Assembly (NCBI RefSeq): GCF_054482595.1
Contig: NZ_CM137008.1
Strand: one strand, 5' to 3'
DNA length: 64,000 nt
Shown: in pieces, positions 23,998 through 24,555 of the stretch
Layout: the number at the start of each line of letters is the position of its first letter
Numbering within the stretch: the first letter of the stretch is position 1
The notes under the pieces: generated by a model
The model's input: only the letters and a program-made list of their open reading frames with translations
The model's database searches: none
Told to the model about the DNA's origin: nothing
Program-made: the position numbers and the translations under genes

Positions 23998-24015
23998 TGT
24001 GAGAGATCTCTTACA
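23998..24015. promoter_or_regulatory. UvrY (BarA/UvrY two-component) binding palindrome upstream of csrB
   Basis: tgtgagagatctcttaca, an 18-bp near-perfect inverted repeat about 180 bp upstream of the csrB 5' end. Confidence 0.7.
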
Positions 24016-24197
24016 GACTCTGTAGGAGATCGCCAGGAAATAAGCGAATACTTAAAAAGATAAGAATCGTTATTTTCATTTAAAATCAAAATGTTGATTG
24101 TTAATTCTTAACTTTCATATGAAATTTTCCTTAAGGCATTGTCTGTAAGCGCCTTGTAAGACTTCGCGAAAAAGACGATTCTATCTTCGTCGACAGG

Positions 24198-24555
24198 GAG
24201 TCAGACAACGAAGTGAACATCAGGATGATGACACTTCTGCAGGACACACCAGGATGGTGTTTCAGGGAAAGGCTTCTGGATGAAGCGAAGAGGATGACGC
24301 AGGACGCGTTAAAGGACACCTCCAGGATGGAGAATGAGAACCGGTCAGGATGATTCGGTGGGTCAGGAAGGCCAGGGACACTTCAGGATGAAGTATCACA
24401 TCGGGGTGGTGTGAGCAGGAAGCAATAGTTCAGGATGAACGATTGGCCGCAAGGCCAGAGGAAAAGTTGTCAAGGATGAGCAGGGAGCAACAAAAGTAGC
24501 TGGAATGCTGCGAAACGAACCGGGAGCGCTGTGAATACAGTGCTCCCTTTTTTTA
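24198..24555 (+). ncRNA. csrB: CsrB sRNA (CsrA-sequestering RNA)
   Basis: About a dozen CAGGA(U)G/AGGA motifs spaced roughly 15-25 nt apart (catcaggatgatg, accaggatggtg, gtcaggatgatt, ttcaggatgaag and so on), ending in hairpin gggagcgctgtgaatacagtgctccc plus T7. Confidence 0.9.

Follow-up and report, generated by a model that had tools for sequence, protein, structure and literature searches.

The regulatory RNA gene csrB lies on the plus strand of the window (the whole stretch of 64,000 nucleotides that was analysed) at positions 24189..24557, and we are virtually certain that this is the ordinary chromosomal locus of Escherichia coli, matching that of the K-12 reference (Table 1). When the whole window was searched against Rfam, the CsrB family (RF00018) was matched at 24198..24557 on the plus strand with a score of 380.4 bits and an E-value of 1.2e-110, the gathering score of the family being 71 bits; the match covered model positions 1-356 of 356 and was not truncated. 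DNA alignment of positions 23970..24610, which bridge the end of syd and the beginning of yqcC, with E. coli K-12 MG1655 gave the same base at 641 of 641 positions (100%). In the curated K-12 annotation csrB is b4408, a 369-nt gene at 2924156..2924524 on the minus strand of NC_000913.3, and it is from the identity over 641 bases combined with the b4408 annotation that the ends of csrB were placed in the window. Apart from the opposite orientation of the K-12 record, not a single difference was found within 23970..24610, and the RNA itself, the syd-csrB and csrB-yqcC spacers, the UvrY box, the promoter, the neighbouring genes and the distance to barA are all shared with MG1655. The sequence anatomy of csrB described below and its identity to the allele studied in the literature are both direct observations on this DNA.

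A preliminary description of the window, made from its letters without database searches, had proposed a csrB sRNA here and named a covariance-model search as the way to check it; the full-length CsrB match (E-value near 1e-110) and the base-for-base identity to the curated K-12 gene bear this proposal out. The interval that it gave, 23998..24555, does cover the csrB locus but begins at the UvrY box and ends 2 nt short, within the U-tract. It was also right to speak of known biology, the locus being that of K-12 csrB: csrB, its UvrY site and the position of barA have been characterised in E. coli for decades, and there is nothing in them that is new for biology.

The locus was then sought by megablast in all complete E. 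coli genomes, using positions 23900..24620 (721 bases) as the query. It was found in 5,425 of the 5,426 genomes, in many of them with 100% identity, and in the matched genomes csrB was always flanked by syd on one side and yqcC on the other. The gene is likewise intergenic in the window, where the gap between the end of syd (23978) and the start of yqcC (24600) holds no ORF above 71 aa and where the csrB 3' end is followed after 42 bp by the yqcC start; the gene order from queF to barA is also that of E. coli K-12. Within RF00018 and its clan CL00106, the CsrA/RsmA-sequestering sRNAs of Gammaproteobacteria, the csrB of the window is a typical member, with GGA repeats in loops and linkers, a terminator and an upstream box of the UvrY/GacA type. 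Every one of the features checked among those that define CsrA-regulating sRNAs (PMC1488887) was observed: the gene is intergenic and motif-rich, it has a terminator and exposed GGA motifs, and an 18-bp site stands upstream of it.

Table 1 Features of the csrB locus and its neighbourhood (positions in the window; negative numbers are relative to the csrB 5' end)
Feature	Position	Strand	Description	Basis
syd	23433..23978	+	Upstream flank, synteny marker	NCBIfam SecY-interacting protein, 286.7 bits
Predicted UvrY-P binding site	23998..24015	.	18-nt near-perfect inverted repeat TGTGAGAGATCTCTTACA, -191..-174	Footprint sequence of PMC4682653
Extra UvrY-like half-site TGTAGGAGATC	24021..24031	+	-168..-158, 5 bp downstream of the inverted repeat	PMC4682653 and alignment
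Putative IHF site AATCAAAATGTTG	24084..24096	.	Fits WATCAANNNNTTR; -105..-93, between UvrY site and promoter	Consensus scan
Presumed weak sigma-70-type promoter	24154..24182	+	-35 TTGTAA (24154..24159), 17-bp spacer, -10 GATTCT (24177..24182)	K-12 5' end and invariant columns
csrB	24189..24557	+	369-nt non-coding RNA with 22 GGA motifs, predicted to sequester CsrA	Rfam RF00018; identity to K-12 b4408
Probable RNase E 'necessary cleavage site' region	24513..24519	+	A327 = 24515, A331 = 24519	Transferred from PMC5027483
Intrinsic terminator	24522..24554	+	11-bp stem and 4-nt loop (24522..24547), then T7 (24548..24554)	Terminator scan
yqcC	24600..24929	+	Downstream flank, synteny marker	ORF; annotated yqcC in identical records
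barA	30900..33656	-	918 aa, tripartite sensor kinase predicted to phosphorylate UvrY	NCBIfam BarA equivalog NF008318

The 369-nt RNA is rich in the motif bound by CsrA. Besides 22 GGA, it contains 14 AGGA, 10 CAGGA and 6 CAGGATG, and the published consensus CAGGA(T/A/C)G occurs in 9 copies, so that the 'about a dozen' CAGGA(U)G motifs of the preliminary description come approximately right. The number of GGA motifs reported for E. coli CsrB is also 22 (PMC5027483). Across the sequence as a whole, segments of 360 nt hold a mean of 4.5 GGA (sd 2.35); the five richest on the plus strand, with 20-22 GGA each, all overlap csrB, and the maximum on the minus strand is 11. A minimum free energy of -121 kcal/mol was calculated for CsrB (z -3.9), and none of 100 shuffled sequences was as stable. 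Of the 21 GGA motifs in the region matched by Rfam, the consensus structure puts 11 in hairpin loops, 2 in stems and the other 8 in single-stranded linkers, this being the count in loops that had been suggested as a further check. The minimum-free-energy fold placed 9 of 22 motifs wholly in hairpin loops and left 7 of 22 otherwise unpaired, and in the thermodynamic ensemble the mean probability of being unpaired was 0.80 for GGA nucleotides versus 0.44 for all nucleotides of CsrB.

At its 3' end the RNA is closed by an intrinsic terminator, already described as strong from the letters alone, in which 7 of the 11 stem pairs are G-C and for which a folding energy of -20.9 kcal/mol was calculated ahead of the T7 tract. 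Its counterpart in the Rfam CsrB consensus is the terminal helix, and GGA site 22 lies inside the terminator, in agreement with PMC5027483. RNase E has been reported to cleave CsrB at A327/A331, just upstream of the terminator, and so to remove the RNA; cleavage is blocked by CsrA at GGA sites 20 and 21, a block that CsrD overcomes (PMC5027483). Because the sequence is identical to that of K-12, these coordinates can be transferred to the window, where the bases at 24515 and 24519 are both A, as published, and where position 24484 is the start of GGA site 20 and 24502 that of site 21, the two CsrA-protecting sites.

Upstream of the RNA, the inverted repeat TGTGAGAGATCTCTTACA was the sole site in the window within 3 mismatches of this sequence, 0.02 being expected by chance. 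It is a near-palindrome in which 8 of 9 pairs match, and it ends 173 bp before the csrB +1 (24189, the K-12 5' end). ChIP-exo and DNase I footprinting had located a UvrY-P site at csrB 'centered at -183/-182' (Zere et al. 2015, PMC4682653); the box of the window has the same sequence and the same centre, and the 18-bp palindrome noticed about 180 bp upstream in the preliminary description is exactly this published site. UvrY binding at csrB in vivo needed BarA (PMC4682653). The same authors described, in E. coli and Salmonella, a partially conserved TGTAGGAGA located 5 bp downstream of the csrB inverted repeat, which maps to 24021..24029 of the window, as well as a second zone of UvrY crosslinking at -56..+25 that is devoid of the inverted repeat. 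Between both zones they placed a putative IHF site: optimal UvrY binding and csrB activation depend on IHF, which is needed for csrB and dispensable for csrC (PMC4682653).

A match to the IHF consensus WATCAANNNNTTR was found on both strands in the interval between box and promoter. This consensus is common: the window has 8 matches where 2.5 would be expected, and such a match is weak evidence alone; it is its conservation in the promoter alignment described below that argues for the putative site given in Table 1. A consensus sigma-70 promoter scan of 23900..24700 called nothing, and the probable -35 and -10 elements were consequently assigned from the K-12 5' end and from invariant alignment columns. 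The null scan fits a weak, activator-dependent csrB promoter. Two TGTAAG half-sites close to the -35 element (24144..24149 and 24155..24160), which fall within the published crosslinking zone at -56..+25, were considered as a cause of that crosslink, an idea that was dropped as unsupported, though not disproved. Within the 12-promoter alignment only Escherichia and Citrobacter retain them, with partial retention in Enterobacter, so they are not a general feature.

The promoter arrangement was compared across 12 Enterobacterales csrB promoters, taken from Escherichia (two species), Citrobacter, Enterobacter, Hafnia, Yersinia, Serratia, Edwardsiella, Erwinia, Mixta, Pantoea and Dickeya. The UvrY box, the core of the extra half-site, the TCA..TT core of the IHF match, the TTG of the -35 element and the A at -11 were invariant throughout. 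Spacing between box and RNA ranged from 164 to 195 nt, and was 180-183 nt in 8 of the 12, the window included. With the known UvrY/SirA/GacA-activated sRNA promoters (TGTAAGN6CTTACA; PMC4682653, PMC1488887) the window shares the 18-nt inverted repeat; at csrB the box lies far upstream (-183/-182), and IHF is reported to act between box and promoter (PMC4682653). The csrC promoter is unlike it in having a much less symmetric repeat and no requirement for IHF (PMC4682653).

A scan of a species-representative genome collection with the pattern TGTRAGAGATCTCTYACA yielded at least 120 loci which, among the matches listed, belong to Enterobacterales, Vibrionaceae, Shewanella, Halomonadaceae, Alcanivorax, Kangiella and others. 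Among the matches listed, 90 of 125 boxes in other genomes were flanked on just one side by a 300-nt segment with 19 or more GGA, background segments of this length having a mean of 3.3 and a maximum of 14 (n=9,539). The median distance from box to first GGA was 176 nt (interquartile range 166-201; 181 in the window), and syd, yqcC and truC accompanied the box in 55-57 loci, again among the matches listed. Rfam placed a full-length CsrB beside the box in all 11 of the Enterobacterales loci tested, and CsrB was also matched beside the box in Photobacterium (118-137 bits) and Vibrio (77-87 bits). In Shewanella the GGA-rich sequences next to the box gave no CsrB match at the Rfam gathering threshold and reached 50 bits, below the 71 required, in a permissive search; these more distant relatives in Vibrio, Photobacterium and Shewanella score far below the 380 bits of the window. 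Shewanella CsrB1 and CsrB2 genes with UvrY boxes have been verified experimentally (PMC3171408). The box loci of Halomonadaceae, Alcanivorax and Kangiella gave no Rfam CsrB match, and in these groups the box, among the matches listed, often stands nearer to the GGA motifs, which number about 10 and form a shorter cluster, at offsets of 7-178 nt.

The recurrence across Gammaproteobacteria of such a box with a GGA-rich RNA some 180 nt away is already published. The criteria applied here are those by which Kulkarni et al. 2006 (PMC1488887) had defined CsrA-regulating sRNAs; their paper also covers the syd neighbourhood and the conservation of an 18-bp site upstream, and the genes it lists include tandem csrB copies in Photobacterium. 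A small part goes beyond the literature. One element of it is the position of the extra half-site, which had been pointed out by Zere et al. 2015 (PMC4682653) in E. coli and Salmonella only: among the matches listed, TGTRRG was found at +4/+5 on the sRNA side of the box in 65 of 90 loci, and at the mirror position on the far side in 1 of 90. The other element is that Enterobacterales conserve both the IHF core and a box-to-RNA spacing of about 180 bp; like the promoter-side bias, this was shown by comparing sequences.

Two other identities were weighed for the interval. GGA repeats and a UvrY/GacA-type box are found throughout the CsrB/RsmB clan, and motif counts alone could not tell csrB from another member such as CsrC; there is nevertheless practically no chance that the RNA is one of these. 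Rfam retains only the best match within a clan, and that match was to CsrB, at 380 bits over the full model. The flanking genes syd and yqcC are those of csrB, whereas csrC lies between yihA and yihI (PMC1488887), and the inverted repeat of csrC differs in sequence (PMC4682653). The 100% identity to curated K-12 csrB had in itself already refuted an assignment as CsrC. We also regard as highly improbable, if a shade less so, that the interval encodes small proteins, or that the palindrome is the terminator of syd or the site of another factor, with the richness in GGA being incidental. Mechanically called ORFs of 22-71 aa do overlap the interval, and the palindrome begins only 19 bp past the syd stop codon. 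The largest of these ORFs, however, has 71 aa, and all of them lie within or across a region for which the full-length match to an RNA family accounts; the coding potential of the csrB interval, which has no ORF above that size, is negligible. The palindrome, for its part, is AT-rich, has neither a loop nor a T-run and was not called by the terminator scan; it is the published UvrY-P footprint (PMC4682653), and elsewhere the same box adjoins GGA-rich RNAs (90 of 125 occurrences among the matches listed). The interval is best described as csrB preceded by its UvrY box.

The barA gene was also located as had been described from the letters, some 6 kb away. Its product scored 1622.3 bits against NF008318, for which the cut-off is 890, with residues 1-917 aligned to profile positions 1-917 of 920, and identical E. 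coli records name the gene barA. It runs convergently to csrB, whose 3' end lies 6,343 bp from it, a distance equal to that in K-12, and the genes between the two are yqcC, truC, yqcA and gudPXD, exactly as in K-12. The preliminary description presented sensor and sRNA as linked. The linkage is real, but it looks like a lineage-limited gene order and not like a functional unit.

We consider it quite improbable that this proximity reflects a selected functional unit, maintained for the sake of, for instance, co-transfer or local regulation, as opposed to plain synteny. Such a unit would be consistent with the 9.7-kb stretch from box to barA being contiguous in 5,413 of the 5,426 complete E. coli genomes, and with barA lying near the box also in E. 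albertii (2.3 kb, too short for the gud operon), Enterobacter sp. Ag1 and Cedecea neteri (4.6 kb each), E. asburiae (7.9 kb) and Pantoea stewartii (9.9 kb). These same distances, however, range from 2.3 to 9.9 kb, and barA was not found in the 9-11 kb downstream of csrB in the Rahnella, Hafnia, Vibrio and Shewanella loci, the cross-species search having covered the downstream side of csrB, on which many loci were too short to judge. Moreover, yqcC, truC, yqcA and gudPXD are unrelated in function, csrB and barA are on opposite strands, and BarA works only through diffusible UvrY and not on DNA (PMC7652899). Given a variable distance, unrelated genes in between, opposite strands and a sensor that acts via a diffusible regulator, the proximity of barA and csrB is best read as an inherited, lineage-limited gene order rather than as a functional module.

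From published experiments on K-12, whose sequence is identical (PMC5027483, PMC7652899, PMC4682653), csrB would be expected to be expressed here and to be bound by UvrY at its promoter and by CsrA as an RNA. Short-chain carboxylates, formate and acetate among them, stimulate BarA, which phosphorylates UvrY (PMC7652899), and the barA product of the window would therefore act on csrB in trans, through UvrY. As published for K-12, UvrY-P would bind the far-upstream inverted repeat of csrB, with IHF assisting both this binding and the activation of csrB; IHF may do so by bending the DNA, bringing the distant UvrY site to the csrB promoter. According to the literature, the resulting CsrB would bind many CsrA dimers via its GGA sites and titrate CsrA away from mRNA targets of lower affinity. 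Cleavage by RNase E at A327/A331 would in turn remove CsrB, CsrA at sites 20/21 hindering this step and CsrD relieving the hindrance.

In practical terms, the locus documents a real gap in annotation. That an annotation based on ORFs alone would miss csrB had been anticipated, and a PGAP-annotated RefSeq record of E. coli with 100% identity over the 721-base query indeed lists only syd and yqcC, csrB being absent from it; the curated K-12 record does carry a csrB feature. The locus is also a clean positive control, in that both an sRNA gene and its distal activator site can be recognised from raw sequence. Rare natural strains with a defective csrB were also found, one carrying a deletion and one an IS insertion, and may be of interest to students of Csr-system variation.

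These comparisons raise one further reading of the csrB upstream region. The third half-site, 4-5 bp from the box and almost confined to its promoter side, the invariant IHF core and the roughly constant spacing near 180 bp across Enterobacterales together suggest that the region might form a nucleoprotein architecture of fixed layout and orientation, and not just the site of one dimer, which we think possible, if on balance unlikely. Any functional role of the half-site asymmetry and of the conservation is speculation. If the reading were true, UvrY-P would bind csrB as more than a dimer, and the asymmetry would set the direction of activation across the IHF bend.

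Beside the 18-nt UvrY-P inverted repeat (the box) upstream of csrB, a third UvrY-type half-site (TGTRRG...) was found on the sRNA side, 4-5 bp from the repeat. The comparison covered 90 loci from a box-pattern scan of species-representative genomes, in which at least 19 GGA motifs per 300 nt lie on one side only of the box. Among the matches listed, the sRNA-side half-site was present in 65 of the 90 loci, versus a single locus with one at the mirror-image position beyond the repeat. Within the same matches it was found at +5 in 44 of 47 loci from outside the Vibrionaceae and Shewanella (mostly Enterobacterales), in 8 of 38 Vibrionaceae loci and in none of the five Shewanella/Psychrobium loci. 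Closer to the gene, a pair of direct TGTAAG half-sites falls within the published downstream UvrY crosslinking zone; alignment of the promoters showed this pair to be confined to Escherichia and Citrobacter, with partial retention in Enterobacter.

CsrB-like loci were also observed beside the box in other Gammaproteobacteria. The Photobacterium indicum locus (2618..4512) carries three tandem CsrB copies (2618..2947, 3298..3612 and 4183..4512), and the box pattern was matched exactly twice there; tandem csrB1-3 had been predicted earlier in P. profundum (PMC1488887). Next to the box, two loci, L012 from Shewanella colwelliana (9684..9945) and L019, carry 20-21 GGA in 300 nt. Neither GGA-rich region was matched by the Rfam CsrB model at its gathering score, and a permissive search of L012 returned 50.3 bits against a gathering score of 71, so that CsrB homologues of Shewanella are under-called at this cut-off. 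In loci from Alcanivorax, Vreelandella/Halomonas and Kangiella (L005, L007, L016, L026, L048, L060, L064, L117 and L122), the box is accompanied by fewer GGA, about 10 in a cluster, at offsets of 7 to 178 nt; in roughly two thirds of these loci the offset is below 100 nt. No Rfam family was matched at gathering score in those of these loci that were tested, and the short clusters may represent RsmY/RsmZ-like short RNAs. The sole box in a contig labelled as non-Proteobacteria, among the matches listed, was that of an uncultured Porphyromonadaceae contig (L044, 14541..14558). No CsrB-like neighbour was found for it, the top GGA cluster being one of 11 at 347 nt and the Rfam search giving no match, and this box is probably a chance match.

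The csrB gene is missing from the annotation of some E. coli records. Over the 721-base query spanning csrB (window 23900..24620), the PGAP-annotated RefSeq chromosome NZ_AP018808.1 shows 100% identity, but syd and yqcC are the sole features at the matched stretch and a csrB feature is absent, unlike in the curated K-12 record, where csrB is annotated. Likewise, the 12 listed E. coli records that matched this query have only syd and/or yqcC beneath the match. Other RNA genes were identified in the window by Rfam, and GcvB is a further one that would be invisible to an ORF-only annotation. The three tandem tRNA genes, which have equal Rfam scores, are probably the metZ-metW-metV initiator tRNA cluster of the K-12 map. 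The sok-like RNA is interrupted by the window end, which implies a hok/sok-type locus extending past it.

Coordinates of half-sites and additional RNA genes in the window
Feature	Position	Strand	Rfam score (bits)	Remark
tRNA genes, three in tandem	1033..1106, 1143..1216, 1253..1326	-	61.4 each	spacing 110 nt
ES036 (CssrF) sRNA	2754..2796	+	46.5	short match
GcvB sRNA	5812..6017	-	199	full-length match
Third UvrY-type half-site	24021..24031
Direct TGTAAG half-sites, two	24144..24149, 24155..24160			11 bp apart, overlapping -35 region
sok antitoxin-like RNA	63896..64000	+	67.5	runs off window end

The interval between csrB and barA differs in Escherichia albertii NBRC 107761, where barA (2516..5269) and csrB (6994..7354) are separated by only about 1.7 kb. 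This gap would accommodate yqcC, truC and yqcA but is too small for the gudPXD operon of E. coli, so that the gud genes look like a variable insert between csrB and barA.

Within E. coli, the csrB query was matched in 5,425 of 5,426 complete genomes, with coverage below 80% in a total of 22. In the swine strain 1919D62 (NZ_CP046009.1), the gene is split by an IS3-family transposase inserted about 94 nt into the RNA, corresponding to approximately window 24282. The single complete genome of the 5,426 without a csrB match appears to be NZ_OZ369161.1 (urine isolate CNR20180903, 4.28 Mb), in which the match to the 9.7-kb query spanning box to barA was confined to the barA portion. Its barA is a truncated pseudogene adjoining the hofMNOP genes, and E. 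coli CNR20180903 is apparently a natural strain that lacks csrB and is defective in barA.
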